Part shown: positions 23,051 through 60,518 of the stretch, piece after piece
How the letters are laid out: every line of letters begins with the position of its first letter
Position numbering within the stretch: position 1 is the stretch's first letter
NCBI RefSeq assembly: GCF_963921235.1
Contig: NC_086108.1
Coordinates: forward strand, 15,624,001 to 15,688,000
Direction: 5' to 3'
DNA from: Mobula hypostoma
Lineage: Eukaryota
Length of the DNA stretch: 64,000 nt
Notes under the pieces: model-generated
The model's database searches: none
Told to the model about the DNA's origin: nothing
The model's input: only the letters and a program-made list of their open reading frames with translations
Translations under genes and position numbers: made by a program

Positions 23051-23156
23051 TATACTGTATGTACAGGTGCAATTAAAAATTTACTTGCAGCAGCTTCACA
23101 GGTACAATACATAACATTGCATTCACAAAGGAAACATAAATTAAAAGTAAATTCTA

Positions 23157-24057
23157 GCAACACACATAAAAGTTGCTGGTGAACGCAGCAGGCCAGGCAG
23201 CATCTCTAGGAAGAGGTACAGTCGACGTTTCAGGCCGAGACCCTTCGTCAGGACTAACTGAAGGAAGAGTGAGTAAGGGATTTGAAAGTTGGAGGGGGAG
23301 GGGGAGATCCAAAATGATAGGAGAAGACAGGAGGGGGAGGGATGGAGCCAAGAGCTGGACAGGTGATAGGCAAAAGGGATACGAGAGGATCATGGGACAG
23401 GAGGTCTGGGAAGAAAGACAAGGAGGTGGGGGGGGGGACCCAGAGGATGGGCAAGGAGTATATTCAGAGGGACAGAGGGAGAAAAAGGAGAGTGAGAGAA
23501 AGAATGTGTGTATAAAAATAAGTAACAGATGGGGTACGAGGGGGAGGTGGGGCATTAGCGGAAGTTAGAGAAGTCGATGTTCATGCCATCAGGTTGGAGG
23601 CTACCCAGACGGAATATAAGGTGTTGTTCCTCCAACCTGAGTGTGGCTTCATCTTTACAGTAGAGGAGGCCGTGGATAGACATGTCAGAATGGGAATGGG
23701 ATGTGGAATTAAAATGTGTGGCCACTGGGAGATCCTGCTTTCTCTGGCGGACAGAGCGTAGATGTTCAGCAAAGCGGTCTCCCAGTCTGCGTCGGGTCTC
23801 ACCAATATATAAAAGGCCACATCGGGAGCACCGGACGCAGTATATCACCCCAGCCGACTCACAGGTGAAGTGTTGCCTCACCTGGAAGGACTGTCTGGGG
23901 CCCTGAATGGTGGTAAGGGAAGAAGTGTAAGGGCATGTGTAGCACTTGTTCCGCTTACACGGATAAGTGCCAGGAGGGAGATCAGTGGGGAGGGATGGGG
24001 GGGACGAATGGACAAGGGAGTTGCGTAGGGAGCGATTGACAAGGGAGTTGCGTAGGG
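23157..24057 (-). mobile_element. Penelope-like element (young subfamily), single arm lacking the 3' tail
   Basis: Intact GIY-YIG ORF 23555-23881 (VIYCVRCSRCGLLYIGETRRRLGDRFAEH); intact hammerhead 23219-23256. Confidence 0.92.
23219..23256 (-). ncRNA. Minimal type I hammerhead ribozyme
   Basis: tagtc-CTGACGA-agggtctcggcct-GAAAC-GTC-gactg read on the - strand. Confidence 0.8.
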
Positions 24058-25628
24058 CTACCCAGTTTTTCCAAGAAAGTACACTATTAGAACAAAAAGA
24101 AATATTTTACTGAAAAGAGCTCAAACTGGTAATAGTGTTGCTAAACCGTAAGTGATTAACGTATTGCTGGTTGATTCAAACACAAATGGTTGATGGTAAG
24201 TAGCTGTTCTTAAACGTGGTGTGTGTGGGGCTTTAGGCTTCTATACATCTTGCCCAATGATAGCTTTTATGATGCTAGGACAAATTTTTAATTTTCTTAT
24301 TTTTATGGTAACAGACCCATCCAGCCTAATGAGGCTGCACCACCCACGCATTGCACCCATATGACCAAGTAACCCTGTGTCTTTGGGGTGGGGGAGGAAA
24401 ACTGGAGCATATTGTCACGGTTTTCACTATCACTGCAAATAATCATGCTGCTAAATTGAACAAGGGATCACTGGCTATATTATTAGATGTAAATGTTGAA
24501 AAGTAAATGGGTTCTGGTACAACACTTCAGCAGAGATATCAAGTTATCTGTTTGTCATCTCCCATTGTAAAGGTTTCAGACAGGGTGCTGAAGAAAATTG
24601 TCAGCACAATATCGGGAATGAAGGTACTCGGCCATATGTAGAGACAGAAGAGGTTCTTGGTTAAGCCATAGCTGGAATACTGTGTACATTTCTGATTGCA
24701 CTGGAGCAAGTGTAAAGGTGGTTCACCAGGATGATGCCTGGGATGGAATTTTTAGTTATGAGAAGAGACTGGAAAGATTAGGATTGTTTTCTTTGGACCA
24801 CAGTAAGCTGACCGGTGACCTGATAGAAGTATACAAAATTGTGAAGGCATACAGTAGATAGGGTGGGTAGTGAGGAACTTCTCTCCATAACAGAGTAGTG
24901 GAAGGGTTTAGGATAAGGGTTAAGAAGTTTAGTGGAGATATGAAGATGGTTGTGAAATCTGGAATGCACCATCTGAGGGATATTTCAGAAGTATCTCGAT
25001 GAACATTTGAATTGTCAACACATAGAAGGCTACAGACTAAGGATTGGTATCTGGGAGTGATATAGATGGATACTTGATCTTATGGATGTAATGGGACAAA
25101 GATCCTGTTCTGTACTGTACACCTCTGAGTAGATTGGATAATGTGCTCTCAGAATCTCCATGTATGTCCCTAAGAATAGATTTGATAGTGTGCATATTTC
25201 CACTCTTCCCTCCTCCATCTCCCTGTCACCCTTCCTGAACTGATAATTTGCCACTCTTACCCTGCCACTTCCCATCACCTCTTTCAGTCCAGAAGAAGAG
25301 TCCTGACCTGAGGCCAACTGCATTTTCCCTCCACAGAAGTTGTCTGTCCCACTGAATTCTACCAGTATTTTATTTTTTATCTCTGGATTCCAGCATCTGT
25401 AGACTCTTCCCTCCTCATCCTTTGATCCTTCCAGTCCTAAGAACAATTAACTTCTCCTTGAATATATTTAATGACTTGACTTCCAGCTGCCTTCCATGAC
25501 AGAGAATTTCACATGTTCACCTGTTTCTGGGAGAAGAACTTTCTTCTCCTCTCTCTGTACGTTTCGGTTTCAAAGTTAATGTGAAAAATAAAGCTGATCT
25601 TTAAATTTTTAAAAACCATCTCTAATCT

Positions 25629-28366: not shown

Positions 28367-28441
28367 GCTTACTCTGTACATGATGAAGATATTGGTTATT
28401 GCCAGGGCCAGTCTTTCCTTGCTGCTGTTCTCTTGCTGCAC
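28367..28441 (+). CDS. RABGAP1L: RABGAP1L coding exon, TBC domain (AYSVHDEDIGYCQGQSFLAAVLLLH)
   Basis: 75-nt phase-0 exon; acceptor ctcttatcttttccacag, donor gtaagt; contains the TBC YxQ catalytic Gln motif (GYCQG); joins the next exon in frame. Confidence 0.93.
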
Positions 28442-31456: not shown

Positions 31457-32077
31457 ATAAGAGGAGCCTTTTCTGTTGGCTGCTGATGACTAATGGTGTT
31501 CCACAGGGGTCTGTTTTGGGTCTGAGTCTTTTTACATTATATGTCAATGATTTGGATGATGCAATTGATGGCTTTGCTGCAAAGTTTGCAAACAATATGA
31601 GGATAGGTGGAGGGGCAGGTAGTTTTGAAGAAGTCGAGAGGCTACAGAAGAACTTAGACAGATTAGGAGAATGGGCAAAGAAATGGCAGATGGAATACAG
31701 TGTCAGGAAGTGTATGGTCATGCACTTTGGTAGAAGAAATGAAAGGGTTGACTATTTTCAAAATGGTGAGAAAATACAAAAATTTGAGTTGTAAAAGGAT
31801 TTGGGAGTTCTTGCGCAGGATTCCTTAAAGGTTAATTTATAGGTTGAGTCTCTGGTGTGGAAGGCAAATGCAATATTGGCATTTATTTCAAGAGAACTAA
31901 AATATAAAAGCAAGGATGTAATGTTGAGACTTTATAAAGCACTGGTGAGATTTCACTTAGAGTACTGTGAGCACTTTTGGGCCTCTTATTGTAGAAAAGA
32001 TATGCTGAAACTGGAGCAACATACATAAAAGTTGCTGGTGAACGCAGCAGGCCAGGCAGCATCTCTAGGAAGAGGTG

Positions 32078-32115
32078 CAGTCGACGTTTCAGGCCGAGAC
32101 CCTTCGTCAGGACTA
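32078..32115 (-). ncRNA. Minimal type I hammerhead ribozyme
   Basis: Same 38-nt motif with an intact core. Confidence 0.8.
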
Positions 32116-32829
32116 ACTGAAGGAAGGGTGAGCAAGGGATTTGAAAGTTGGAGGGGGAGGGGGAGATCCAAAATGATAGGAGAAGACAGGAGGGGGAGGG
32201 ATAGAGCCAAGAGCTGGACAGGTGATAGGCAAAAGGGATATGAGAGGATCATGGGACGGGAGGTCTGGGAGAAAGACAAGGGGGGGGACCCAGAGAATGG
32301 GCAAGGGGTATATTCAGAGGGACAGAGGGAGAAAAAGGAGAGTGAGAGAAAGAATGTGTGTATAAAAATAAGTAACAGATGGGGTACGAGGGGGAGGTGG
32401 GGCCTTAGCGGAAGTTAGAGAAGTCGATGTTCATGCCATCAGGTTGGAGGCTACCCAGACGGAATATAAGGTGTTGTTCCTCCAACCTGAGTGTGGCTTC
32501 ATCTTTACAGTAGAGGAGGCCGTGGATAGACATTTCATCTTTACAGTAGAGGAGGCCGTGGAATGACTTATTTTTACACACACATTCTTTCTCTCACTCT
32601 CCTTTTTCTCCCTCTGTCCCTCTGAATATACCCCTTGCCCATCCTCTGGGATCCCCCCCCCCACCTTGTCTTTCTCCCCGATCTCCTGTCCCATGATTCT
32701 CTCATATCCCCTTTGCCAATCACCTGTCCAGCTCTTGGCTCCATCCCTTCCCCTCCTGTCTTCTCCTATCATTTTGGATCTCCCTCTCCCCCTCCCACTT
32801 TCAAATCTCTTACTAACTCTTCCTTCAGT

Positions 32830-32867
32830 TAGTCCTGACGAAGGGTCTCGGCCTGAAACGTCGACTG
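32830..32867 (+). ncRNA. Minimal type I hammerhead ribozyme (sense to RABGAP1L)
   Basis: tagtcctgacgaagggtctcggcctgaaacgtcgactg. Confidence 0.8.
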
Positions 32868-33513
32868 TACCTCCTCCTAGAGATGCTGCCTGGCCTGCTG
32901 CGTTCACCAGCAACTTTTATGTGTGTTGCTTGAATTTCCAGCATCTGCAGAATTCCTGTTGTATGCTGAAACTGGAATGGGTTCAAAGGATGTTCACAAA
33001 AATGAATCCAGGATTGAATGACTTGTCATGTGAAAAGTGTTTGATGGCTCTAGGCCTGTGTCTACTCGAATTCAGAAGGATGAGGGGTGACGGAATTGAA
33101 ACCTATCGAATGGTGAAAGGCCTTAATAGAGTGGATGTGGAGAGGATGTTTCCTATGATGGGAGAGTCCTGAGAATAGAGGGACATCCTTTTAAAACCGA
33201 GATGTGGAGGAATTTCTTTAGCCAGAGAGTGACGAATATGTGGAATTCTTTGCCACAGGCAGCTGTGGAGGCCAAGTCTTTATGTATATTTAAGGTAGAT
33301 AGATTCTTCATTGGTCAGGGCATGAAGGGATATGGGGAGAAGGCTGGAGGTTGGTGCTGAGAAGATTGGATCAGCCATGATGAAATGGTGGAGCAGACTC
33401 GATGGGCCAAATGATCTAATTCTGTTCCTATAGCTTGTAGTCTTATGGTCTTAAAAACTGTACATAACAAAAATGGACAAATAACGAAGTGCAAAAGACA
33501 ACGAACTCCAAGT

Positions 33514-40087: not shown

Positions 40088-40470
40088 GAGATTCTGCAGA
40101 TGCTGGAAATCCATTACAGCACACAAAATCCTGGAGGAACTCAGCATTTCAGGCAGCATCTATGGAGAGAAATAAACACTCGATATTCGGGGCAAGACCC
40201 TTCATTAGAAATGAAAAGAAAGGGGTAGGAAGCCTGATTAAGAAGTTGAGCTCAGGGAAAGGAGTACAAGCTGGGAGGTGATAGATGAAGCCAGGTGAGG
40301 GGGAAGGTGGATTGGTGGGGGAAAGGGTATGAAATAAGAAGCTGGCAGATGATAGGTGGAAGAGGTAAAGGGCTGAAGAAGAAAGAATCTGAAATGAGAG
40401 GAGAGTGGACCATGGGAGAAAAGGGATGATGCAGGGGCACTAGGGAGAGGTAATGGGCATGTGAGGAGAA
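40088..40470 (-). mobile_element. Old Penelope-like 3' repeat
   Basis: agattctgcagatgctgga...ggcagcatctatgg, degenerate hammerhead, purine-rich tract. Confidence 0.65.
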
Positions 40471-42069
40471 GAGGAGGAGTCATTCCTGGTTCCTGTATTG
40501 GGACAAGTGGAATGCCACCTTTCTCCTTTTGCTAATTGCAGGGTAATTTGGGCCATATTGACCTGGGATTCTTGAGTACTCCAGGTTATCTTGCAGTGGT
40601 GCCATATTGAGGTCCCATATGGGTCAGTCAGTAGGGAAAATAGAAAATGTTGCAAACATTTATCAGGTCGGGTCTCATCTATGGAGATAGAATCATTCAA
40701 CATTGCAGATTTGTGACCCTTAGTTCATGGAGCAATAAGTTTAGTGGGGCAAGAGCAGGCTGAAACAGTCCTGTTTGTGTATCTTGAGCAGAAGATAGAA
40801 GCAGGCTGAGTGAGGCTGAGGCATCTCAAGGTTAGAAGTTGTGGAGGGAAGATCACTTGAGGAAAACTAGTTAGAACACTTCAATTACGTGTCCTGCTAG
40901 TCCTCATTAACCAGCCTGCCCCCACCATTCTTCAGATGACAGCTCCACCTCACTCAGAGTCATAAAGTGAAAGGGAGATGCAACACTGACACTAACTCTT
41001 CAGCCCATTTATTCAGCCGCTGCCAACCTCCCATTTATTCTCCCCACATTCCCATTGGCAACTGACTCAATTTCTTTGCATAATGCCAATTTTCTATAAT
41101 TGTGTAAAGGATGCTGAACCTTTATTCTTCAATATCACACTTCATTTAACTTGTTGGGCATCTGTCAATTAGAAACATTCTAAAATGAGCTTGTGTTGGC
41201 AGTCTATCTTGATCTGGAGTGCTGTCTGCCTGGAATTTTCACATTCTTCCTATGACTGTGTGTTTCACCTAAATCAAAGGTTGGAAGGTTCATTATCAAA
41301 GCATATATCCAAATACAACTCTTATGCTCTGTTTACTCTCACATCCCAGAAATGTGTGGTTTGTTGGGTTAATTGGATGGTGTCATTTGTGTAGAATCTG
41401 GCAGGTGCAATTTGACTGCAAATCTGTGGTTGACAGTCAATACAAACTTGTTTCCATGTTAAACCCAATAACTAATGACTCCCAATCCCCTCATGTTGTT
41501 TCTAGTTAACCTACCAATCCGCAGTCCTTAAGATGGGGAAGAAAACTGGTGTACACAAAACTCACACAGGGAGAATGTGTAAACTCCACACCAACAGCAT
41601 TGTGGATCAAGATTGAACCAAGACTGCTGGAGCTGTCAGGGAACAGCTCGACTGGAGGCTCATGGTGTTGTCCCGATCTGCTTGCCCCCACGTTCCCCCC
41701 AATGAAAATGCCAGTGGCAATTTCTTAAAGTATCTGTACTGCCAAGTACCCAACAGTTAGTCTCCACCTTATGCCGACCACCTAATAACCCCAATCCTAT
41801 CTCCTGCCAGGCTCCTGAAGTACTCCCCTTCTCCTGGTCTCCCAGAGGAGAACCAGGCACAGTGCCTGGTTACTACTGTCTGTAGAATCCACAGACCTCT
41901 AGGCAACTGCTGCATAGTCACTTAGATAATAACTAATTGAAAGAGAGGTATCTTGAGGCTTTCCTGCTACAAACACTGGGCAGTGCTGAGCAACTACAGC
42001 CCTCTAGAAGATTCAACTTGCAGATTAGGTGTTATACCAGGCCCATTCCGTAGATATAAAGTTGAACAT

Positions 42070-42480
42070 ATCCTGACTGGTTTCATCATGGTCTGGTACA
42101 GCAATTTGAATGTGTAAGAATATAAGAAGCTGCTGAGAGTAGTGCACTCTTCCCAATATTCTGTGCACCTCCCTCCCCACCATCATCATGCAGGAGGCAC
42201 TGCCTCAAGAAGGCAACATCCATCATCAAAGATTTCCACCTACTGGATGATGCCACCTTCTTGCAGTTACCATCAGGCAGGAGGCAGAGAAGTCCCATTT
42301 CACCAAAGCACTTGATTGTTTTGCACTATAATGGACATTTTGTTTTGTTCTCATGTGTTCCAACCTATAAAAATCCTTTTCTTCTGATGCTGCTTGAATA
42401 ATGCTATGTCCCTGTGATGCTGCTGCAAGTAGCTTTTCATTGCACTTGTGCATATGATGATAAACTTGACTTTGACTTGA
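42070..42480 (+). mobile_element. Decayed Rex1-like 3' fragment with (TTGAC)n tail
   Basis: ILTG....WY and A.SIIKD.H....F..LPSGRR-like segments; ends aaacttgactttgacttga. Confidence 0.65.
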
Positions 42481-43501
42481 TCAGGTGATGATATAAAAGC
42501 CACTGCCGGAAGAGCAATGTTTTCGAAGTCCCTGACCAATACTTATTCCTCAGTCAACATCACTGATCATTGCTGTGCGTGACTGTCACATTTTGGTATT
42601 TGTAAACCACCTGATGTGTCTGGATATCATGGAAGACACTACTAACAAGCAAGACTTGATTAAAGAGCATTGTTATCGTATTTCTAATCCACAGCTTTTT
42701 GGGTTCATTGTGATCAAACCTGAAGCAGATTCTCATTTTGAAATGAGATTAAACTTGATTGGAATGTCTGGCATGTTAAAGGAATGACAATATTAAGTGA
42801 TGAGGGTTGAAGTATTCGTAACATGACCTGTGTGAGGAAATTAGCACTGTGCAAAGAAATTAGGTCAACAGTTGACAGCTGACCCATTGCATTCAGGAAG
42901 TAGAGTCACCTGCTGTCCTTAATCCCTCTTCCTTATCCCTAAATCCATCAGTTAATAACATCCACATTCATTTCAGAGATGCTACGGAAAATCTAAGTTG
43001 GAATTACAGTATCTTATTAAAGTTGGTTTACAGACTGCAGTAGGAGGAGCCTCTAGCACTGCTTGACAATTCCAATGACCTTGTGATATATCATCCCTCT
43101 CATGCACTCAAATTGCAAGGTTTATCTGGGGAGGGAGGGGGCTTGTGATGCCTGGTAAATGTACATGGGCCAGGGATGATCAAAAAATCCAGAAGTGAAG
43201 TTCCCTCATATCATTAGAGGAAGAAGCACTCAGAAGGTGTATTCGTGCCTTGTCTGTAGTAGTTCCCTCACTGCGATTCTGCCCACCTAAGCAGTAAGAC
43301 CCAGTTCAACCCCACTGGATTTATTACACTTAACCAGACTTCTTCCATAATGCAGCTCACAAAACTGAACCACTTTGCAACAGCTGGGCTAGTTCCCTTA
43401 CTCCCCCTGCACTGGCTCACAACCCTGCATCCAACAAAATGTCCTGGACTGTCATAGGGAATGCAACGAATCCTGACTTGGAATGAATGTCTTCCCTGCA
43501 G

Positions 43502-43627
43502 ATGCCAGAAGAGCAAGCATTTTGTATCCTGGTGAAGATCATGTATGACTACGGTCTTCGAGAGCTCTACAAGAATAATTTTGAGAATCTTCACTGCAAG
43601 TTCTACCAGCTGGAAAGACTACTCCAG
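43502..43627 (+). CDS. RABGAP1L: RABGAP1L coding exon (MPEEQAFCILVKIMYDYGLRELYKNNFENLHCKFYQLERLLQ)
   Basis: 126-nt phase-0 exon; acceptor cttccctgcag, donor gtacgt; not in the ORF track, translated by hand. Residues AFC, IMYDY and LY.NN fit RABGAP1L better than RABGAP1 as recalled. Confidence 0.93.
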
Positions 43628-43786
43628 GTACGTGCCACGTTTAAGCAAAGTTTAGGTTAATAAGCATGAAATGAACATGTAATTGAAGCAAACAACAGGA
43701 ATTCTGCAGATGCTGGAAATTCAAGCAACATACATCAAAGTTGCTGGTGAACGTAGCAGGCCAAGCAGCATCTATAGGAAGAGGCG

Positions 43787-43824
43787 CAGTCGACGTTTCA
43801 GGCCGAGACCCTTCGTCAGGACTA
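43787..43824 (-). ncRNA. Minimal type I hammerhead ribozyme
   Basis: Intact 38-nt motif on the - strand. Confidence 0.8.
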
Positions 43825-44305
43825 ACTGAAGGAAGAGTGAGTAAGGGATTTGAAAGCTGGAGGGGGAGGGGGAGATGCAAAATGATAGGAGAAGACAGGA
43901 GGGGGAGGGATAGAGCCGAGAGCTGGGCAGGTGATAGGCAAAAGGGGATACGAGAGGATCATGGGACAGGAGGTCCGGGAAGAAAGACAAGGGGGGGGGT
44001 GACCCAGAGGATGGGCAAGAGGTATATTCAGAGGGACAGAGGGAGAAAAAGGAGAGTGAGAGAAAGAATGTGTGCATAAAAATGAGTAACAGATGGGGTA
44101 CGAGGGGGAGGTGGGGCCTTAGCGGAAGTTAGAGAAGTCGATGTTCATGCCATCAGGTTGGAGGCTACCCAGACGGAATATAAGGTGTTGTTCCTCCAAC
44201 CTGAGTGTGGCTTCATCTTTACAGTAGAGGAGGCCGTGGATAGACATGTCAGAATGGGAATGGGATGTGGAATTAAAATGTGTGGCCACTGGGAGATCCT
44301 GCTTT

Positions 44306-44757
44306 GATTTTTATAGGTTGGAACACATGAGAACAAAACAAAATGTCCATTATAGTGCAAAACAATCAAGTGCTTTGGTGAAATGGGACTTCTCTGCCTC
44401 CTGCCTGATGGTAACTGCAAGAAGGTGGCATCATCCAGTAGGTGGAAATCTTTGATGATGGATGTTGCCTTCTTGAGGCAGTGCCTCCTGCATGATGATG
44501 GTGGGGAGGGAGGTGCACAGAATATTGGGAAGAGTGCACTACTCTCAGCAGCTTCTTATATTCTTACACATTCAAATTGCTGTACCAGACCATGATGAAA
44601 CCAGTCAGGATATGTTCAACTTTATATCTACGGAATGGGCCTGGTATAACACCTAATCTGCAAGTTGAATCTTCTAGAGGGCTGTAGTTGCTCAGCACTG
44701 CCCAGTGTTTGTAGCAGGAAAGCCTCAAGATACCTCTCTTTCAATTAGTTATTATCT
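44306..44757 (-). repeat. 452-bp inverted duplicate of 41924-42375
   Basis: Both ends and the internal segments checked are exact reverse complements; identical 70-aa ORFs at 42086-42298 (-) and 44383-44595 (+). Confidence 0.95.
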
Positions 44758-45673
44758 GGAGACAGCTTATCCACTGATGTCTACTATAAGCCTACTGACT
44801 CTCACAGCTATCTGGACTATTCCTCTTCTCACCCTGTCTCTTGCAAAAACGCCATCCCCTTCTCACAATTCCTCTGTCTCCGCCGCATCTGCTCTCAGGA
44901 TGAGGCTTTTCATTCTAGGACGAGGGAGATGTCTTCATTTTTTAAAGAAAGGGGCTTCCCTTCCTCCACTATCAACTCTGCTCTTAAACGCATCTCCCCC
45001 ATTTCACGTACATCTGCTCTCACTCCATCCTCCCACCACCCCACTAGGAATAGGGTTCCCCTGGTCCTCACCTACCACCCCACCAGCCTCCGGGTCCAAC
45101 ATATTATTCTCTGTAACTTCCGCCACCTCCAACGGGATCCCACCACTAAGCACATCTTTCCCTCCCCCCTCTCTCTCTGCATTCCGCAGGGATCGCTCCC
45201 TACACAACTCCCATGACCATTCGTCCCCCCCATCCCGCCCCTCTGATCTCCCTCCTGGCACTTATCCGTGTAAGCGGAACAAGTGCTACACATGCCCTTA
45301 CACTTCCTCCCTTACCACCATTCAGGGCCCCAAACAGTCCTTCCAGGTGAGGCATCACTTCACCTGTGAGTCGATTGGGGTGATATACTGCGTCCGGTGC
45401 TCCCGATGTGGCCTTTTATATATTGGTGAGACCCGACGCAGACTGGGAGACCGCTTTGCTGAACATCTACGCTCTGTCCGCCAGAGAAAGCAGGATCTCC
45501 CAGTGGCCACACATTTTAATTCCACATCCCATTCCCATTCTGACATGTCTATCCACAGCCTCCTCTACTGTAAAGATGAAGCCACACTCAGGTTGGAGGA
45601 ACAACACCTTATATTCCGTCTGGGTAGCCTCCAACCTGATGGCATGAACATCGACTTCTCTAACTTCCGCTAA
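44758..45673 (+). pseudogene. Penelope-like ORF 3' part: RT thumb, Cys-rich linker, GIY-YIG endonuclease; one frameshift near 45170
   Basis: TDVYYKPTDSHSYLDYSSSHP..KNAIPFSQFLCLRRICS; CKRNKCYTC linker (Neptune-like by inference); IYCVRCSRCGLLYIGET. Confidence 0.88.
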
Positions 45674-45969
45674 GGCCCCACCTCCCCCTCGTACCCCATC
45701 TGTTACTCATTTTTATGCACACATTCTTTCTCTCACTCTCCTTTTTCTCCCTCTGTCCCTCTGAATATACCTCTTGCCCATCCTCTGGGTCACCCCCCCC
45801 CCCTTGTCTTTCTTCCCGGACCTCCTGTCCCATGATCCTCTCGTATCCCCTTTTGCCTATCACCTGTCCAGCTCTTGGCTCTATCCCTCCCCCTCCTGTC
45901 TTCTCCTATCATTTTGCATCTCCCCTTCCCCCTCCAGCTTTCAAATCCCTTACTCACTCTTCCTTCAGT

Positions 45970-46007
45970 TAGTCCTGACGAAGGGTCTCGGCCTGAAACG
46001 TCGACTG
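45970..46007 (+). ncRNA. Minimal type I hammerhead ribozyme (sense to RABGAP1L)
   Basis: tagtcctgacgaagggtctcggcctgaaacgtcgactg. Confidence 0.8.
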
Positions 46008-47499
46008 CGCCTCTTCCTATAGATGCTGCTTGGCCTGCTGCGTTCACCAGCAACTTTGATGTATGTAATTGAAGCATCTGGTGGAAATGGATTTGGTTCA
46101 GTAGTCTATTGACTTTGGGGCCATTGGTTGGGGCACTGTGAGGTGCTCTAAGTTCAGTGATGCACATCCCCGTGTTTTGGAAGCATTGTGTTTGTGAATA
46201 TAGAGGTATGGGCCCAGTAAAGGGAATGGGAATGATTTGTCTGTATCTGTGAAACCCACAATTCCTCTATTCCATTTCAGCACCTACTTTTTAAGAAATA
46301 TATGCCCTCTTTATTTTTGTTGGAGAGATACGCAGCTGAAGATACCTTGCTCATCACTACCATTCTGTAAGCTTTGAAATGTTTCAACCATTTTGTTGTT
46401 TTTTTTTCAACTTTGCGTACCCTTTAGAATCAGGAACTATTTGAATAGTTCACTGCAGGGGAACATGAGGTTCGGCTTTGAAACCTGCTGGTCAGGTTTA
46501 GAGTGTGGATTACACTCCACTGCCGAAGCTTCCAAGTTCAAGTTTGTTTATTATTGTTTTAGCCATTCATGCACCAGGTATAAATGCTATAAAATTTAGC
46601 TTTACTCAGCACCAGCACAGTACATTCTAGGACAAGGGCAAGCACAGAGTAACTCAAGAGATTCTGCAGATGCTGGAACTGAAGCAACACAAAATGCTAG
46701 AGGAATTCAGCAGGTCAGGCAGCATTTATGGAGGGAAAGAAGCAGCCAACGTTTTGGGCCAAGACCCCTCATCAGGACGGTTAACATATATTTTACATAA
46801 GACGTGTTTAAAATAAAAAACACTAGTGCAAGATGGAGCAAGAAAAGGAGACATAAAAAATAATTAGGCTGTGGTAGTGTTAAGATTTTTCAGGTTGGTC
46901 TATATTTTGATTTATCATGCTTCCACTACTTGTCTCATGCCAACCACCCTCTACTAATCCCCATCCCAGCTCTGGCCTCCTGGAGGAGAACCAGATACAG
47001 TGGCTGGTTAATAGTGTCTGTAGAATCCACGGACCATAGAGATCCATAGAGATTTAAAGCGATTTCAATGTTTTCTGGCAACTGACAGGTCTCTTTATTT
47101 CTTACTTTTCTATCTGCTTCCTTTCTTGGGTAGATGTAATGTCTGCTGTTTCACAATCCACAGAGGTTGCTCTAGAATTTTGGGATTTTTGCCAGGTCAC
47201 AATAATTGAGTGACACATTTTGTTGCTCTATCAGTTTTTGTTTTACTAGAATCTTCAATCTTATTAACTCATTGCTTTCTTGATCTATCTAAGATACATT
47301 CTACTTTCTCTGCTGTGAAGCAAATACAAAATGCTAAATATAATGCCTAAGTTAGCTCCTTCAATACGTCTCATGTTTCAGCCTCTGAAGGATCTGCATA
47401 CCTCCATGTTTGCCTTCTACAAACTCCTGTTATATATTTCTCACAAGTTTCATAATTGATTTTCCTCCCTTTTTGGCCATCTTTCAGTATTAACATTCC

Positions 47500-47820: not shown

Positions 47821-50253
47821 CTTCAGATAATTGTGAAGGTAATTGAGAATGTGCAGCAGGTAGGATGCAGAAATTGGTAAGAAAAGGCATGACATTAAAT
47901 TTTTAAAGATTTGTGGTGATATCTCATTTGCTGATCATGAAGCATCAGAGAAATTCATTGATGAGTATTCCAAGATCATTGCTGATAAAAATGTAACATG
48001 CTGAATTGCTGCTTCAGTATATATGTTGATGAACAAGTGTAACATGAATTAGTGCTTAGCGGTAGCACATAAGTTAAGAGTTGGAAATGATAGCAATCTA
48101 TTTCATTATATATTCAAAAATTTAAAGAATCCAAAATCTGAAAATCTTCGTAACCCCTAGCATTTTGGATATTTATATCATCTATGCTTCTCATGACTTC
48201 TTTATACCTCCATGAGATCATCCTATAGTGTCCTACTGCAAGTAGTAAAGGAGTATATAATTATTGTAATTTATAGTTTTTCATGTATTGCGTTGTACTG
48301 CTACTCCAAGACAACAAATTTCACCACATAGAGGATCCTGTATGTTTAAAATTTGGTGTCTTGCGGTAGCAGTACAGCGCAATACATGAAACCTGATCTG
48401 ATTCCTATTCTCGGGTTCAGTTTTCTTTAATGTTTTGGTAAATCTCTTCTGATTATTAAAAACTGCAGTTAAATGCAGGTACAAGTGGTGCACCTTTTCT
48501 TAAGGAGCTTTTTTTTTAATGTATTGCACTGGGATAATTTTCAAATATTTCTTTAAATACGTACCGTTGTTCAATTGCTGTTCTTATCTATGCTTATAAT
48601 AAATTTATATACCTCTATAAGATCACCCTTCATTGTCCTACATTGTAAGGGGTAAAGGCCCATTCTGTCTAACCACTCCCTATAACTTAATTTCCATTGC
48701 AGCTTAGCCAGTTCATACTATATAGCTATGCAAATGATTCTGATTAATTTCAGAACTCTGGTGTTGGATGAGGACATTGGTATGACATTGGTTATGAAAT
48801 TCCATCCCAACAAGGTTACTAATTAACCTTGTGTCACAATCAATGACTATATCCAAAACAGCTTTTTTTAGATTAGCTTCACAACACTTTGTTCCAAGCA
48901 ATTGTCTCAGTTGCTTTCTGTGAACCCTTTCTCACAACATCCCACAATAATTTGATTTGTCCCATCCACGTGAAGCCTGGAGTACATTGCATCGTGTTCA
49001 CTATGAGCTCTTGTTATTTCTTGATGCATACTTCACCCCACAGGATATCCATCATTAGCAGGCCTGTAAAATTGCTCCCATGAACGTTATCCATTGTCTT
49101 ATCTCCAGCTATAATTTCTACTTTCTGATTATATGAATATGGCTCATTCGGGCCTATTGTTTTCAGACTCACCCCATTATCAGGGTTAATTCCCACTTCT
49201 TGTCCACTCTTTCTGTTGCTTCAGATCTCTAATTCAAATCTTTGAGCCCTTGCAAACTGAGGTTGCTCTCAGTCCAAAACTATTTATCACTATTCGTTCT
49301 ATTGACTTATCTATTTGGTTATGTATGTTACTTGTAGTGAGATAAAGTGATGTAAATTTTAACTCTTTACCATTTATTTCATGGTTGGATCTTTTACTAG
49401 TATTTCAAAGTTGAGTTATTGTAATTAAAAACTTAACTCAACACAGGCATATAACATCATGTCATCAACATTCAGAAGAAAAACATAAATTTAACATAAG
49501 ATATACACCATTTTTACGAGAAAGAAACACAATTAGAAAAAAAACAAGTGCGTTTTAGTGCAATGTTCTCATAGTGTTGCCGTATTTAAATAATACAGGC
49601 TGTTCAGGTTGGTGCAAGTAGGTGATGATGTAGAACTTCAGGCCTCTGTATCTCCTGCCTGATTGTAGCTTTGAGAACATGGCTTGGCCTGGGTGATGGA
49701 TGATGGATGTTACCTGTTCACTGTTATAGTTAAAGTCTGTATAATTCTGACACAGTTTTGTTATCCTACTTAACAACAATGCTCTTGCCGTGACATTACA
49801 AGGTGGTTTTCAAAATTTTCCCTCACATCCTTACAGATACAAGTCGACCTTCACTAATCCTTTCTTTTTCAATCTTTTTATTAGTTTCATAAAATATAAA
49901 CATAACATAATAATAGTACAAAGTTATTGGGAATGCAATGTTATACTTAACATGAGTAATTATAGAACCAAATAGTACTTAATTAACAAAACTCCCAATC
50001 ATATAGGATACCAATGAATAATACAGAACAAAAAAAAAATCTGGACAAAAATCATGAAAAAAGAAAAAAAAACAAAAAAAAAAACCCTCAAAAAAAAAAC
50101 TAATCTAAACAGAATTAATCAACTAAACTAAAAACAAGACCTGGGCTGTTTTAACATCATAAAAAATGGGAGAAAAGAAAACCTTAGTGTCGACGACTCC
50201 GCTCCTCTCAACCAAAACTACAGAGAAGTAAAATAAGTTTGGAAATGGTCACA

Positions 50254-53200
50254 TTACATCATATGAAAATGCTGAATAAATGGCCTCCAAGTTTTTTCAA
50301 ATTTAATGGAAGGGTCATAAACCACACTTCTAATTTTTTCCAAATTTAAACACAACATAGTTTGTGAAAACCAGTGAAATATAGTAGGAGGGTTAATCTC
50401 TTTCCAATTCAGCAAAATGGATCTTCTAGTCATTAAAGTAAGAAATACAATCATCCAACAAGCTGAAGAGGTTAAATGATTTGATTCTATCTTTGGTAAC
50501 CCAAAAATAGCAGTAATTGGGTGAGGTTGTAAGTCTATATTTAGGACCGTTGAAATAATATCAAAAATATCTTTCCAATATTTTTCCAACAAAGGACATG
50601 ACCAAAACATGTGAGTCAAAGAAGCTATCTTGGAATGACATCTATCACATATAGGATTTATATAAAAGTAATAACGAGATCGTTTACCTTTGGACATATG
50701 AGCCCTGTGCACTACTTTAAACTGTATCAACGTATGTTTAGCACATATAGAAGATGAATTAACTAATTGAAGAATTTTTTCTCATTTTTCAATCGGTATA
50801 ATAATCTTAAGTTCTCTTTCCCAATCAGTTTTAATTTTATTAGATACATCAGGACATAAATTCATAATTATATTATAAATAATTGCTACAACACTTTACT
50901 GAGAAAGATTTAAATCTCAAATTTTTTCCAAAATATCCATTGGATATAAGTCTGGAAAATTAGGAGAAACAGTAATTAAAAAGTTTCTAACCTGTAGGTA
51001 TCTAAAAAAGTGAGATCTGGGTAAATTATACCCAATGTGGACTTGAAGTTGCATCCAAATCTCGTAACCAAAATTTTAAGTATCGAATATTAATTGCCCA
51101 ATAATAAAATCTAAAATTTGGGAGCGCTAACCCCCTCCCCCCCTTTTTTTAGATTTCTGTAAATACCTTTTACCTAGCCTAGGATTTTTGTTCTGCCATA
51201 TATATGAGGAAATTTTTGAGTCAACATTCTCAAAAAAAGATTTTGGAATAAAAATTGGAACCGATTGAAATACAAACGTTTGTACATATAAAAATTTAGG
51301 CAAAATAATCATCTTAATAGCATTAATCTGACCAATCAAAGACAAAGAAATTGGAGACCATTTAGTAAACAAAAGTTTAATCTGATCAATTAAAGGTAAA
51401 AAATTAGCTTTAAATAAATCTTTATACTTTTCCGTAATTATAATCCCTAAATATATAAACGATTCAGTAACCAATTTAAATGGTAAACATCCATAATAGG
51501 GGAAATAATTCACTCTTATTAAAGTTTAATTTGTAGCCAGAAAAATTACTAAATTGAGCCAATAAAGCTAGAATAACAGGAATTGACTTCTCCAGATTAG
51601 AGATATATAATAACAAATCATCTGCATATAGTGATAATTTATGTATTTCATTTCCGTGGGTAATACCAAAAATATTGGGCGAGTCACAGATAGCAATTGC
51701 TAAAGGTTCAAGGGCGATATTAAATAGTAAAGGACTAAGAGGGCATCCTTGCCTAGTACCACGAAATAGACGAGAAAAGGGAGATCTTTGATTATTAGTG
51801 CAAACCGAAGCTACCGGGGTATGATATAACAATTTAATCCAAGATATAAATATCAAACTAAAATTAAATTTCTCAAGCACACTAAATAAATAAGGCCATT
51901 CAACTCTGTCAAAGGCTTTCTCAGCATCTAATGAGATAATACATTCCGGAGTATTAAATGAAGGGGTATAAACAATATGCAGTAACCTCCTAATATTAAA
52001 AGATGAATAACGGTTTTTAATAAATCCAGTTTGGTCCATAAATATAATTTGAGGTAATACCTTCTCTAACCAAGTTGCTAAAATTTTTGAAAAAGTTTTT
52101 GAATCTATATTCAAAAGAGATATCGGTCTATATGATGCACAATCAGTAGGCTCTTTATTCTTTTTAAGAATTAAGGAAATAGAGGCTTCATAAAATGATT
52201 GTGGTAATTTACCTAAACTGATTGCTTCTTTGAATATTATAGACAACCACGGAGAGAGAATAGAGGAAAAGAATTTTTAAAATTCCACTGTAAACCCATC
52301 CGGACCAGGTGCTTTACCAGAATTCATTGATGGGATTGCAGTTGTTATTTCCTCCTCTGTAATAGGAGTTTCTAATGATAAGCAATCTTTGGGTGATAAT
52401 TTCAGAAAATTCTGTTTACTTAAAAAATCATGCATGATTTTAAAATCATGAGGAAAATTAGAGTGATATAAAGAGGTTTAAAATTCTTGAAAGGTTTTAT
52501 TTATCTCGTCATGATCAACTGTCAAAGTATCATCGTGTTTACGAATCTTAGTAATTTGACGTTTAACCGAAACAAATTTCAATTGATTAGCCAATAGTTT
52601 ACCCGATTTATCACTATGAATATAAAACTCACTTTTTGTTCTCATTAATTGATTTTCGATAATAATAGTAAACTATGTTCCAATTGAAGTTCAACTCTGT
52701 GTTTATACAGCTCCTTACTAGGAGCAATAGCGTATTTTTTTTTATCAATATCTTTAATTTTATCAACCAACAAGAGTATTTCATTCTTAGTACGTTTTTT
52801 CAAACCAGCCGAATAGGAAATAATCTGACCACAGATATAAGCTTTAAAAGCATCCCATACTGTTCCATTGGAAACTTCTCCCATAGTATTAGTTGAAAAA
52901 AAATCAATCTGTCCCTTCATAAACTTAACAAAGTCCGAGTCTTGAAGCAAAATAGGATTAAATCACCATTGTCTATTAGTAGAAGAAGTATCCATTAACT
53001 TGATAGAAAGTTTCATTGGAGCATGATCTGAAATGGCGATAATATCGTAATTACAATCAATTACAGATGGGATTAATCGAGAGTCAATAAAAAAATAGTC
53101 AGTTCGAGAATAAGAATGATAAACATGTGAAAAGAATGAGAATTCTTTGTCCTTTGGGTGTAGAAATCTCCAAATTTCTGAAATCCCAGAAGCAATCATT

Positions 53201-53712
53201 AGAGAGTTAATAAGAGTAGCTGACTTATTCGGTAAAGCCGGACTACCTATGGATCTGTCCACATGGGATTTAAACATAAATTAAAGTCACCACCCATTAT
53301 CAACATATACTCGTTTAAGTTAGAAAAGGAAGTGAATATGTGCTTAAAAAATTCAGGATAATCCACATTCGGAGCATAAACATTAAACCATAACAACCTT
53401 TTTATTAAAAAGTAACCCAGTAATTAGCAAGAATCTACCATTAGGATCTGAGATAATGTCTTGATGAATAAAAGTAATTGAGGGATCTGTAAAAATTGAA
53501 ATGCCTTTAACTTTGGCTTGGGAGTTCGAATAGTATTGTTATTCTTTCCAGAACTTAAAGAAGCGTTGATTATCCTCTTTCCTTACACGAGTTTCTTGTA
53601 CAAAAATAATATGAGCATTCAGTCTTTGGAGTACTTTGAAAATCTTTTCCCGTTTTATTGGATGGTTTAAGCCATTTGTATTCCAAGAGACAAGATTAAT
53701 AATGTGAGCCAT
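50254..53712 (-). pseudogene. L1 ORF2 (APE endonuclease, RT, C-terminal Cys motif), disrupted
   Basis: MAHIINLVSWNTNGLNHPIKR, SDHAP, YRPISLLN, SLDAEKAFDRVEW, GTRQGCPLSP, LYADD, CDRC..HMFWSC. Confidence 0.92.
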
Positions 53713-54533
53713 AATTTAACATTAACCCTTTGGTATGTAAAGGGTTAACCATAATGTGAACTCATCAAATTGGAAGAGGAATACATGATCAAAGAGGAAC
53801 CGGAAATCCCGACATTGCAGACATCTTTGTAGTACTAAATCAGCCCAATAGAAAAAATTAATAAAGAAAAAAACTCCCCCACCCTCCATCCCTAAGAACC
53901 CCGAACTAAGCCAGAGACGGCTGAAGAAAGAACTAACTAACACTAAATCTAACCCCATTTCTGCAGGAGGAAACTCCAAAGATATATGTTACATAGATGA
54001 CCCCCCGAAAACCGATATAAAAAATTAAACACTATACTACAATAATCTACATAGTATAATTTCTAAAGTACATAAATAAGAAAAAGTTAATATCAGTACG
54101 TATGATTAGTTAATTATAAATGAAAGTGAATAAAATATCGCTTCCAAAAAACGAAAGGGGATTGTGGGAAGAAGAAACGTAAGAACATGGCGTGCCCAAA
54201 AAGAACAAAGGAGATTATGCAAAAAGAAAAACAAACTGCCATTTTAATTATACAAAAGCAAAAATAAAGAACATATAACTAAAATTGATCGGCAGATCAA
54301 ATCATTAGTGATAATATAGGAAATCAAATAGTTAAAAAAAATTAACTAAGGAAAAGTAACGTTATTCGCGAGAAAAGACTTTTTTAGATAAGTTGTAAAA
54401 TAATATCTGTAGTACTAAGCACAAAACAAAAATCTTGAGCTTATAAAAAACCTTCATTGTATGGTAATAGAAAGTTTGTTATTTTTTTTAAAACACCAGA
54501 AAGAAAGCTGATACTGAGAGCACCGAACATTAA

Positions 54534-55437
54534 TTAAAGGGCGGTGTCTGTATCAGATGGGTAGTTGACATCCAAAAAGCTTCGAGCAGCAGTTGTGGAA
54601 TGGAAGACACGACGAGATCCATCAGGAAGAGAAATTCTTAGGCGTGCAGAGTACAATAATGCCGGTTTGAGATTTTTTTGATAACATTCCGACATCAGAG
54701 GTTTAAAAATCAGTCGCTCTTTCATCACTTCGGGACTGTAATCTTGAACTATTCTGAAGGAATGCTGACGATAATTGATCATCCCTTGCTGACGAGCAGC
54801 CTGGAGAAGCTGTTCTTTAACATTAACGTAATGGAAACGAAGAATAATTGGTCTCGGTTTTGATTCGGCGGATGCCGGCTTTGGCTGCGATATACGATGG
54901 GCACGGTCAAGCAATGGAGGCTCGTTTGGAAATACTGAGCTGAACATATCCTTTAAAAGTTGAGCAAAGAATATTGAAGGGTCTCCATCCTCAACATCCT
55001 CGGGTAGACCAATTATACATAAGTTCTGTCTTCTCGATCGTTTTTTCAAGATCGATGACTTTGGATTTAAAATGTTGCAGTTGTTTCATGGTCCAAGCTA
55101 GATTCTGCTCCAAGTTCTCGACTTTTGAATCCGTCTTCTGAGATTTGTTATCCAGTTCAGAAATTTTACTTCGATGTTTTTGAACTTCACAATCCAGGGA
55201 TTTCAGCATTTCCGTGATTGATTTTAAGTCTTCATTAAGACTTTAACTTTGTTCAAATTTATCAGATAATTTATCAGATAAACTTTCAGATAGATTTTGA
55301 CGTTGTTCCTTGAATTTTTCCTCTAAAACCTTCATCGTGGCATCATAGGGTAGCTGCGTTTGTTTAGAGTCACCTTTTCTTTTTCCTCTGTTCCCGTCGG
55401 AATCTTTCCTGTCTTTGGCTTTGGATCTTGTACTGAT
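54534..55437 (-). pseudogene. L1 ORF1 (coiled coil plus RRM/CTD), frameshifted
   Basis: RSRRQNLCIIGLPE, LDRAHR, KPRPIILRFH, IVQDYS, LLYSARLRI; the presumed start codon appears mutated to ATC (inference). Confidence 0.85.
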
Positions 55438-57678
55438 TTCTTTAGATTCCAGAGTTGCAGTTCAAGAAAAAATCAGTAAGATAAAATAAGTCTTCTGGTG
55501 TAGGTAAAAATTAACCAATTTTCAAGATCGTAAGGGAGATCATAGGTTAAAAAAAAGATAACGGGAATGGAGCAAAGCCAGAAGCGACCTCACTTCATGA
55601 GTGCTCCCTGCAGAATTCCACCTTCACTAATCCGACTACCTGTAATCCGATTCCTTCGATAATCCAGCACTGATTATGCTTATGTGATCCTTCTGTAATT
55701 CGGCGTTTTCACTAATCCAGCACTCCTCAGATCCCAATGGTGCCAGATTAATGAAGGTCAACCTGTACTAGTGTGATACCTGCTTGTAAGTAATGTTGAC
55801 TGGGCTCAGGACCCTGGAGTGTGACTTAGACCCATGTTCTTCTCACATCTGATCCAAGAGCTTTATTGCCTGGACATGGCTGACACCATGTATGAAATAC
55901 CAAGTACACAGTAAGGAAACTATAGATTATTAACTTCACAATCCAGTCCTGCTGCTCCCCTGATAGGAAATTTATTTTTTGGGATCTGAATTTAAACAAC
56001 ATAAATCTATTTGAGCAAATTGGAGGGTGATCTACATAACTGGTAATTCAGTTCTATAAATAGAGGAAGAAAGGAATTTGAAAGGCAGAGTGAGGCATAC
56101 TACAATTATTTATGGTAGTGAAGTTTAAATATAAACTTTGAAGCCTTGAAGCTTATCATTTCAGTAATTTACTTAAATAAGTTGCTGCTGTGCAAAAGGC
56201 TAACTCTATAATTAAAATATAATGTGTTTTAGAGTCAGATATTTCTCAAATTAAGAGAAAATAAAATGGTAAAAACATAAAGCATGGCTGTCCTTAGAAG
56301 CATATCCATTGCTCTTACCTGCCACACAGCCCTAGCCACACAGTACTGTCCCAGAATTATGGTTCTACACTTTTTTTTGCACTTACTTATCACAGGTAAA
56401 GTTCTGTCACATGGTTATAGCCAAAACATTACTACCACACTTGTGCCGTGGTTACTGTCAGTTGTCTGGGTAGACAGCTTCACAGTTGTTACATTCTGCT
56501 TTATTAGCCACGCTGATGATCATAGATCCACTGTCACTGCCCTCCCACACTCACACACCCACAAAAGCAGCTTGGTTGGCTGGCTTTAGGGTCAGAGGTC
56601 ATTTGCCTGGTGGGAGATCAGATACATAGTCAGACCATCACATTTCTAACCTAAACAAATATGTGAAGATCCTCTCAGCTGAATCCGAGAAACCTTCTGA
56701 CATCACATTTGAATATAGAAGTCACTTCAATAAATCTGGTTCTGGAGTCAGATATGATAGTGGTGTTTAAGAGGCTCTTAAATAGGTGCATGAATATGAG
56801 AGGATGTAGGGTTATAGACATTGTAGAGGCACAAGGGATTAGTTAGTTAGACATTTAGTTACGTTTAGTTGCAGGGCCTGTTCCTGTGCTGTACAATGTA
56901 CTGTATAATGTAACCATATATATTTATGTAATATACAGATTGAATGTCAGCTCCATCTTACCCACTGTTGCTCAGGTACACTTCCCTGTTATTGAGCTTC
57001 ATATGTATGGTGTTTATCAGGCTAGAAGTTACTTCCTTCCACCTGGGCTGTATCCCATCTTAATAATATTCAGTTACTGGTTATTTAAAAATAGCACAAA
57101 CACGGTTGTAACAAACCAGGTGAGGAGACTTGCAGATGCTGGAAACCTGAGATAAAACAGTGAATGCTGGAAACACTCAGCAGGTTGGGTAGTCCCGGCA
57201 GAGAAAGGAACAAAATTACCAATTCAGTCTTCTATCCAAGTAGAATGATAAGGAGTCCCTGATTTAATGTGTTGGACCCGCTGAATATTCGTAGCATTTG
57301 CAGAAGTTTTTTGAGTCTGAACAGCTTTTGAAGGAATATGACTTTTCCATTTCTTATTCACTGCTTCCCACTACAGCACTCTGGCAATTGTCTGATTCGA
57401 TTCAGATTTTTCTTTTCAAAAATATATCCTGTAATATTGTATGTGATACTGATACACCCAAACCATTGCTAGTGGTGCTGTACAGATGAACTGAATAATG
57501 GTCAAGAGTAGACTACGATTCCTTGCTATCCCCCTACCTTCACTGCAAAACATTTGTTCTTTTTGCTTCATTCATTGGGAAAATATAGGTGAATGAATTA
57601 GTGAGCTGTTCCCTGCTTCAGTTGCTTGTGGAACTGCATGTTGGAGTAAAGCCCCACACTGTTACTTATTGCTTCCAG

Positions 57679-57822
57679 GAGCAGCTGCCGGAACTCTACA
57701 ATCACTTCCTGGACCTGAACTTGGAGGCACACATGTATGCTTCACAGTGGTTCCTCACACTCTTCACTGCCAAGTTCCCTCTCTGTATGGTCTTCCACAT
57801 CATCGACCTGCTACTCTTTGAG
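57679..57822 (+). CDS. RABGAP1L: RABGAP1L coding exon (EQLPELYNHFLDLNLEAHMYASQWFLTLFTAKFPLCMVFHIIDLLLFE)
   Basis: 144-nt phase-0 exon; acceptor ttgcttccag, donor gtaagc; EQLP, DLNLE and FPLC match RABGAP1L as recalled. Confidence 0.93.
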
Positions 57823-58519: not shown

Positions 58520-60518
58520 GCAACACACACAAAATACTGGTAGAACACAGCAGGCCAGACAGCATCTATAGGTAGAAGTACAGTCGACGTTTTGGGCCGA
58601 GACCCTTCGTTAGGATTGACTGAAGGAAGAAATAGTAAGAGATTTGAAAGAGGGAGGGGGAGGGGGAGAACCGAAATGATAGGAGAAGACAGGAGGGGAA
58701 GGGATGGAGCCAAGAGCTGGGAAGTAGATTGGCTAAAGAGAAACAAAGCTGGAGACACGGGAGAAAGAAAGGGGGAGGGGAGCACCAGAGGAAGATGGAG
58801 AGCAGGCAAAGAGTGATTGTGAGAGGGAAAGAGAGAGAGAAAAAAGGGGAGGGGGAAATAATAAATGAATAAATAAATAAAATAGGGGATGGGGTAAGAA
58901 GGGGAGGAGGGGCATTAGCGGAAGTTAGAGAAATCAATGTTCATGCCATCAGGTTGGAGGCTACCCAGAAGGAATATAAGGTTGTTCCTCCAACCTGAGT
59001 GTGGCTTCATCTTCACAGTAGGGGAGGCCATGGATGGACATATCAGAATGGGAATGGAACGTGGAATTAAAATGTGTGGCCACTGCGAGATCCTGCTTTC
59101 TGTGGCGGACAGAGTAGAGGTGTTCAGCGAAACGGTCTCCCAGTCTGTGTCGGGTCTCACCAATACAGTCGGCCCTCCTTATCCGTGAGGGATTGGTTCC
59201 AGGACCCCTCGCAGATACCAAAAAACGCGGATGCTCAAGTCCCTTATTCAACCTGCAACAATGCAGAGGACCTTAGGACCCAGCAGAACCCTGGACCTTA
59301 TTTAACCTGTCGTAATGCTGTGGACATTAGGACCCAGCGGTGGAGCTCTGAATCCACAGCGTTTCTGTTCACGAAAATAATCACAATCACCATTGAAAAT
59401 AAAGTGGAAGTAGTGAAGCGATCAGAAAGAGGTGAAATGCCATCGGTCATTGGAAAAACGTTAGGCTACAGTCGGTCAACGATCAGAACAATTTTAAAGG
59501 ATAAAGTGAGAAAGGCCCTGCCCCGATTAAAGCTACAATTATTACTAAGCGACACAGTGGTTTAATTATTGGGTTTTGGGTTTTTGATCCTCCACCTCAA
59601 CCCGGCACGGGTGGAGAGCGCACTCGGGAGCGGTCTGTCACTGGATCGAACTCGGGAACGGAAGTTCCCAAGCCCGGAGCTGAAACATACATTTCTTAAG
59701 TGTTTTATATGCATAGAAAGGTAAAAAATATACTATATACTAAGACAAATGCTTGACTAACTGACACTAAATAATACTGAATGTACCTATTCCGACTTAC
59801 TTAGTAAGAGAACTTCCAGTTGTTTTTCATTCCTGCTCCAGGATAACCTACGCACATCCTCCCGTATACTTTAAATCATCTCTAGATTACTTATAATACT
59901 TAATACAATGTAAATACTATGTAAAATAGTTGTTACACTGCATTGTTTAGGGAATAATGACAAGAAAAAAAAGTCTGTACATGGCCAAACAACAAGTGCC
60001 GGAAGAGCACTTCTGGGTTTTCTTGAGTCGCGGTTGGTTGAATTCGTGCATCCGGATTTCTCTAACTTCCGTTAATGCCCTTCCTCCCCTTCTTACCCCA
60101 TCCCTTATTTATTTATTTTCCCTTTTCTTTTCTCTCTCTCTCTCTGTCCCTCTCACAATAACTCCTTGCCTGCTCTTCATCTTCCTCTGGTGCTCCCTTC
60201 CCCCTTTCTTTCTCCCTAGGCTCCCGTCCCATGATCCTCTCCCTTCTCCAGCCTTGTATCCCTTTTGCCAATCAACTTTCCAGCTCTTAGCTTCATCCCT
60301 CCCCCTCCTGTCTTCTCCTATCATTTCGGGTCTCCCTCTCCCCCTCCCACTTCCAAATCTCTTACTATTTCTATTTTCAGTTAGTCCTGAAGAAGGGTCT
60401 CGGCCCGAAACATCGACTGTACTTCTTCCTATAGATGCTGTCTGGTCTGCTGTGTTCTACCAGCATTTTGTGTGTGTTGCTTGAATTTCCAGCATCTGCA
60501 GATTTCCTCGTGTTTGCG
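58520..60518. mobile_element. Older Penelope-like inverted two-arm insertion with 14-bp TSD and a central Tigger-like segment
   Basis: Arm 58520-59165 (-), arm about 60055-60518 (+); TSD tcaaaaaaatgatt (58506-58519) / tcacaaaaatgatt (60519-60532). Confidence 0.88.
59166..60054 (+). mobile_element. Tigger/pogo (MER2-like) non-autonomous DNA transposon, right terminal repeat truncated
   Basis: TA|cagtcggccctccttatccgtgagggattggttccaggacccc left end; CENP-B-type HTH TITIENKVEVVKRSERGE..IGKTLGYSRSTIRTILKDK. Confidence 0.85.

Follow-up and report, generated by a model that had tools for sequence, protein, structure and literature searches.

A perfect inverted repeat around a RABGAP1L exon of Mobula hypostoma, most likely the scar of a Penelope-like insertion

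The 64,000-nt stretch of Mobula hypostoma DNA considered here (contig NC_086108.1, positions 15,624,001 to 15,688,000; hereafter the window, to which all positions refer) holds three exons of RABGAP1L, and the 126-nt middle one is enclosed by a perfect inverted repeat. Our analysis indicates that a single recent insertion of a Neptune-type Penelope-like element very probably created this repeat, which is most likely an insertion scar of the type known from human L1 elements and not a built-in splicing switch. On the assembled sequence, positions 41924-42375 and 44306-44757 are exact reverse complements (452/452 nt) with 1930 nt between the arms, and the match stops abruptly, with no extension at either side. 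The original prediction placed a phase-0 exon of 126 nt in a loop of about 1.9 kb between two perfect 452-bp copies, and sequence comparison bears this out. The left arm (41924..42375, forward strand), here termed the donor, is intron composed of single-copy sequence and fragments of old repeats, and appears to be the template of the copy. The right arm (44306..44757, reverse strand), termed the filler, is its exact reversed copy. Besides the donor, the best match of the filler to other window sequence reaches 72% over 101 nt, and derivation from a young repeat family was rejected on that basis.

The filler lies inside the insertion. A single 14-bp target-site duplication (left copy 43677..43690, right copy 46063..46076, both forward; the first 4 bases of the right copy match the element end too) encloses, in this order, an inverted pseudo-long terminal repeat (pLTR) with a tail, the 452-nt filler and a truncated element body, which agrees with the earlier assignment of the right arm to the element as filler. 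The inverted pLTR and its 37-nt tail (43691-43727), which is absent from the right end, occupy 43691..44305 on the reverse strand. The body (44758..46062, forward) is 5'-truncated and frameshifted, and comprises the end of the reverse transcriptase (RT) region, a linker, an endonuclease and the second pLTR. The pLTR arms (43728-44305 and 45487-46066) are identical in 573 of 580 alignment columns. They differ at 5/578 sites and by a 2-nt indel, with three private changes in the left arm and two in the right when six copies are aligned, and these differences fit either two templates or later mutation.

An element hairpin of about 580 bp had been described as well. The pair is real, although its bounds require correction, the tail belonging to the left arm only. 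It had further been suggested that this hairpin could compete with the filler/donor helix. The two helices have zero bases in common and strict rivalry for the same bases was rejected; the order donor, pLTR arm, filler, pLTR arm makes them crossed helices in a pseudoknot arrangement and not mutually exclusive pairings. Helix and strand lengths leave loops long enough for a pseudoknot, so that any competition is topological. Predicted duplex energies are -906 kcal/mol for filler/donor and -1250 kcal/mol for the pLTR helix.

The age of the insertion was approached by comparing contigs of four sequencing runs over 40300-43730, a stretch beyond which both filler junctions lie. Run X2 represents organism A and is possibly the source sample, thus not independent; X5 represents organism B, while X9 and X10 are taken as RNA by guess only. 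An X2 contig matches 42444-43712 with zero differences and enters the element tail, so the left insertion junction exists in that run. In organism B, two long X5 contigs show 41 differences from the window over 2963 bases (1.4%). A contig of this organism matches 42447-43691 and continues with 604 further letters unlike the element tail; counted from 46077, these would reach 46680, 20 bases into an old repeat that starts at 46661. An end inside an old repeat is an expected contig break, and this contig was therefore read as an empty site. Judged by these contigs, sister organism B appears to be without the insertion. It has the left part of the donor in place (contig at 40397-42113), for which reason the possibility that the donor is the new copy was rejected. 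The filler differs from the donor at 0/452 positions, compared with 41/2963 between the two organisms (Fisher p 0.0045; upper 95% bound 0.66%), and its divergence, lying below the A-B rate, points to a copy younger than the A-B split. The depth of X2 contigs over the donor (7.7, 14 and 6.14, with 8.5, 12.6 and 10.8 expected for two copies and 6.3 for one) was raised in two of three cases and not in the third; depth is not copy number, and these values were set aside as evidence. Since the filler lies within a single duplication and organism B seemingly lacks the insertion, the filler appears to be a copy of the local intron made during the recent insertion. A filler without dedicated function is part of this best explanation.

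For a Penelope-like element, one protein has been described that both cuts the two strands and extends them, initiating at two sites flanking the tail, while later insertion steps are yet to be validated (PMC11167929). The outline of dual priming is visible in the present insertion as a target duplication, head-to-head arms and a tail at one end. In the mechanism that we favour, endonuclease cuts in the two strands, offset by 14 bp, would each leave a 3' end that primes reverse transcription, the right end yielding the truncated body and the left nick priming the inverted pLTR. The left strand may then have continued on a template of sense polarity, from 42375 back to 41924 (1.3-1.75 kb upstream), for 452 nt, before the extended strand was joined to the first cDNA. 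Read along the window, the filler is the reverse complement of upstream sense sequence, a polarity that fits extension from the left nick. Broken or trimmed nascent intron RNA would be a ready template, the gene being transcribed on that strand, and we tentatively propose a jump of the RT onto nascent RABGAP1L intron RNA as the likeliest single source of the filler, at somewhat less than even odds. The RT of R2, an enzyme distinct from that of Penelope, jumps to a free 3' end using 1-2 added bases (PMC8857657). The first filler junction (44305/44306) has 0 nt of microhomology, and such a seamless joint would fit a jump of this kind.

The same side and polarity would be expected, exactly as found, if the left end was resected and its 3' overhang, tipped by the new inverted pLTR, doubled back on its own strand at 42375, a repair polymerase then copying 452 nt before ligation. 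This DNA snap-back has been proposed for L1 inverted duplications, and the distance of less than 1.8 kb is within the resection range given there (bioRxiv 10.1101/2024.12.14.628481). However, the duplications in the available part of that work show 2 bp of homology where the strand folds back and involve small hairpins, whereas here the primer end is without complement at 42376 onward (0 nt at 44305/44306) and the loop would measure about 1.9 kb. Snap-back is rather unlikely in our view, and the zero microhomology at the first junction mildly favours an RT jump to nascent RNA over it.

The second junction (44757/44758), with 0 to 3 nt of microhomology, bears on copying in the opposite direction. 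Here, the 3' end of the body cDNA would pair through about 3 nt with the bottom strand at 41924, in a sister chromatid or fork gap, copy rightwards to 42375 and be blunt-joined to the inverted arm. Microhomology-primed template switching at forks (fork stalling and template switching, FoSTeS, or microhomology-mediated break-induced replication, MMBIR) is established, and a possible 3-nt match exists at the second junction while there is none at the first. Yet this route needs the bottom strand to be exposed upstream of the break, which is the strand that resection removes. In addition, the 3-nt match requires a TCT serine codon before the truncation; it is deduced from protein relatives (serine in 13 of the 16 printed, cysteine in the nearest), and a final annealing junction explains it equally. 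Searches for element DNA upstream of the truncation gave 0 matches in metagenome contigs, and the window holds no longer copy. We believe that this direction of copying, too, is improbable.

Finally, the filler could be an assembly or long-read artefact, such as a fold-back chimera, within a real insertion. The perfect identity of the arms and the position of the filler junctions outside the stretch compared with contigs would agree with this, and inverted Penelope-like structures are known to trouble assemblies (PMC8557442). Nevertheless, a fold-back read would show point symmetry, which this copy lacks, and the filler sits precisely between both truncated element ends. Furthermore, the flanking pLTR arms are non-identical, hence not collapsed, and two other copies in the window show templated junction inserts. 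There is consequently only a very slight chance that the filler is artefactual.

A number of observations weigh against an origin by one recent insertion with copying from the local intron RNA. The organism B match ends just one base past the duplication, and its 604 letters are known only as unlike the tail. Neither filler junction was seen in reads or contigs, both being outside the compared stretch, and run X2, which carries the left junction, may be the source sample. The pLTR arms differ by the five substitutions and the 2-nt indel given above while the filler differs from the donor at none (p 0.07), which may reflect two templates or chance. The 3-nt microhomology at the second junction comes from protein relatives and not from DNA. 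Moreover, RNA and DNA templates of equal polarity are indistinguishable from one locus.

The insertion ends overlap the duplication by 3-4 bases that fit the element as well (43688-43690 and 46063-46066), and many contigs of the family start at 43688-43690. These overlaps suggest short pairing at both priming sites.

As regards its class, the element has the features of an endonuclease-bearing Penelope-like element: a GIY-YIG domain, an inverted pLTR, a tail and a short duplication are all present. The GIY-YIG endonuclease (PF01541; approximately 45377-45604, forward, with C..C before YIGE) gave an E value of 1.8e-4 and 22.2 bits, slightly below the cut-off of 22.6. The first 133 codons of the body match 96 of 206 candidate proteins, many of which carry PF00078 and some PF01541, the RT core itself being absent from this copy; the best matches are proteins of rays, with 86-96% identity. 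A CX4CxxC linker (CKRNKCYTC at 45269, spanning 45269-45295 on the forward strand) precedes the endonuclease. In the available text of PMC8557442, a CX2-5CxxC linker between RT and endonuclease is absent in Penelope/Poseidon and present in Neptune/Nematis. The zinc-finger linker thus rules out the Penelope/Poseidon clade, and by this motif the element fits the Neptune or Nematis clade. A putative hammerhead core is indicated by a sequence pattern in each pLTR arm (43819-43792 in the left, reverse strand, and 45975-46002 in the right, forward strand), while a search of Rfam over 41000-47000 returned 0 matches at E up to 1. For a related Penelope-like ribozyme, cleavage in vitro was seen only in the presence of protein (PMC11167929). 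Within RABGAP1L introns, the hammerhead-like cores of the element at 45975-46002 and 32835-32862 are sense-oriented, and three more are antisense. Such insertions usually have head-to-head arms, a tail at a single end and a short duplication (PMC3846280; PMC8557442), and it is the filler that is the unusual part of this one.

The enclosed exon (43502..43627, forward; 126 nt, phase 0/0) is bounded by AG..GT, starts with ATG and encodes residues 632-673 in the core of the TBC domain, with 42/42 residues identical to Mobula RABGAP1L. It is accompanied in the window by an upstream exon (28367..28441, forward), which contains GYCQG, and a downstream exon (57679..57819, forward, 3' end approximate), and all three are identical to RefSeq proteins of Mobula hypostoma and M. 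birostris. Compared with human proteins, the middle exon scores 80.2 bits with RABGAP1L (3HZJ) and 71.9 bits with RABGAP1 (4NC6), and the latter gene was rejected on account of this lower score. As the exon spans positions 105-146 of the 216-position TBC model, its skipping would probably break the domain and leave a dead one. It is retained in 4/4 Mobula RefSeq isoforms of its cluster. Exon-skipped proteins numbered 0 among the proteins retrieved, a biased sample in that 120 of its RABGAP1L-like members were retrieved using this very exon as query.

In this allele, the perfect pair may nonetheless affect splicing, a reading compatible with an origin by insertion, and drive appreciable formation of single-exon circular RNA (circRNA), skipping of the exon in frame or A-to-I editing. 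The premise of the original prediction, that complementary sequences flanking an exon favour back-splicing, is in print, reverse-complementary motifs being thought to act in this way (PMC6376117). Among the six cross-exon inverted pairs of the window (counted at lengths of at least 200 nt and identities of at least 80%), the pair in question is the closest, with its 1930-nt loop, and the only perfect one. Its predicted duplex energy of -906 kcal/mol points in the same direction, and the filler ends 729 nt ahead of the pLTR partner, so that it can pair first. On the other hand, an exon of 126 nt is under the typical length for single-exon circles. Such circles arise from long exons (medians of 169-253 nt versus 121 nt; PMC6376117), and circularisation is influenced by exon size (PMC4479058). 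Bracketing by inverted pairs is also common here, all three window exons being bracketed (by two, three and one pairs, respectively); two further pairs span this same exon, with 92% identity over 404 nt and 95% over 526 nt. The exon is kept in all four Mobula isoforms, and an X9 contig has the whole exon plus 343 letters past its 3' end, which shows that a joined form exists and is silent on rarer ones. The back-splice 43627>43502 is not among the 15 joints listed of 207; these derive from contigs only, in which rare forms are dropped, and the X9 animal may lack the insertion. As to editing, neither A>G nor T>C changes are listed for X9 or X10, an exact contig covering only 114 of 452 arm bases in one of the two runs. 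Among the literature matches listed for RABGAP1L and circRNA, nothing by title concerns this exon. Taken together, an appreciable effect of this kind is unlikely. Pairing of donor and filler across the exon can occur in the pre-mRNA, yet most transcripts probably include the exon normally, and circle formation, skipping or editing would be minor at most. That an RT jump onto host pre-mRNA has created a perfect repeat that measurably alters splicing, through a new lineage-private circRNA or skipped isoform, is highly doubtful; if true, RT jumps would repeatedly give rise to new back-splicing alleles in genomes this rich in Penelope-like elements.

Further observations concern the surroundings of the exon. 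At the +5 base of its 5' splice site (43632), the window has G where organism B has A, the window site being nearer to consensus. In run X9 an exact contig lies within 43097-43531, covering the last 405 nt of the intron and passing into the exon, and run X10 has contigs at 43046-43291 and 43353-43511. Three shark RefSeq isoforms of 417 aa begin at the ATG residue that opens exon 43502-43627. Possibly, there is an alternative 5' start inside the repeat loop, giving a transcript without the left arm; DNA in runs X9 and X10 could also explain the contigs. In the downstream intron, 48000-56000 has a GC content of 30-37% across about 8 kb compared with 39-50% elsewhere, and a 43-nt hairpin (91%) lies at 48279-48391.

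Other copies were also observed in the window. A second head-to-head insertion of the same family at 32001-32976 has a 15-bp duplication and a 29-nt direct re-copy at its inner junction. A minus-strand, 5'-truncated copy at 23149-24058, which is 96% identical to the body, begins at the 5' end with 20 nt re-copied in direct orientation. These re-copies at the 5' junctions of two other young copies indicate that the 5' joints of the family are prone to templated additions. An older head-to-head pair at 58520-60517 has arms that are 82% alike, a 10-bp duplication remnant and about 890 bp between the arms; the latter sequence starts like what we take to be the end of a Tigger-type DNA transposon.

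The insertion scar is real and young, and as it stands it is one neutral-looking scar. Its clean junction suggests that two rounds of extension from the second primed end are possible, one templated by element RNA and the next by local host sequence, which L1 occasionally shows as well. The allele also offers a natural test of whether a perfect, close pair suffices to circularise or skip a short exon, given that the sister organism seemingly has the empty site.

The closest parallels come from L1. A study of human somatic insertions contains, in its available text, three cases in which upstream target DNA was copied in inverted orientation and a fourth that involves twin priming in addition (0.3% and 0.1%), with lengths of 52-220 bp, as well as one co-insertion of a local precursor mRNA (Nam et al. 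2023, PMC10191854). Like these fold-back cases, the present insertion has an inverted upstream copy in its 5' part and a target duplication, and twin priming is shared with one of them. It differs in being a Penelope-like element in an assembled fish genome, and its 452-bp copy comes from a site 1.3 kb distant and separates the inverted arm from the body. With L1 break-end remodelling (bioRxiv 10.1101/2024.12.14.628481) it has in common the side, the polarity and the retained target duplication. The duplications of that work, however, start at a 2-bp homology in small hairpins, while here there is none, the loop would be 1.9 kb and the copy would follow addition of the second cDNA. With an inverted upstream copy found inside the duplication and an empty site read in organism B, the sequence data appear to describe a local inverted duplication of the L1 type.

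Among Penelope-like elements, inverted-pLTR insertions of endonuclease-bearing members similarly have head-to-head arms, a tail of 30-40 bp at one end, a short duplication and, as in the rotifer Adineta vaga, host sequence between pLTRs (Arkhipova et al. 2013, PMC3846280; Craig et al. 2021, PMC8557442). In the available text on those insertions, however, the inverted copy directly adjoins the body, and the captured host sequence is not traced to the flank of the insertion itself. Our literature search found no Penelope filler copied from its own flank; it covered few subscription articles and no supplements, and Extended Data Fig. 9g of PMC10191854 or Repbase could hold closer cases. The arrangement also resembles circRNA loci with reverse-complementary motifs in having complementary arms on both sides of an exon and long introns (PMC6376117; PMC4479058). 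Unlike at those loci, the exon is short and the pair is a one-off young copy that is not conserved in the sister organism. The scar is therefore of a type already known from L1 and less documented in Penelope-like elements.

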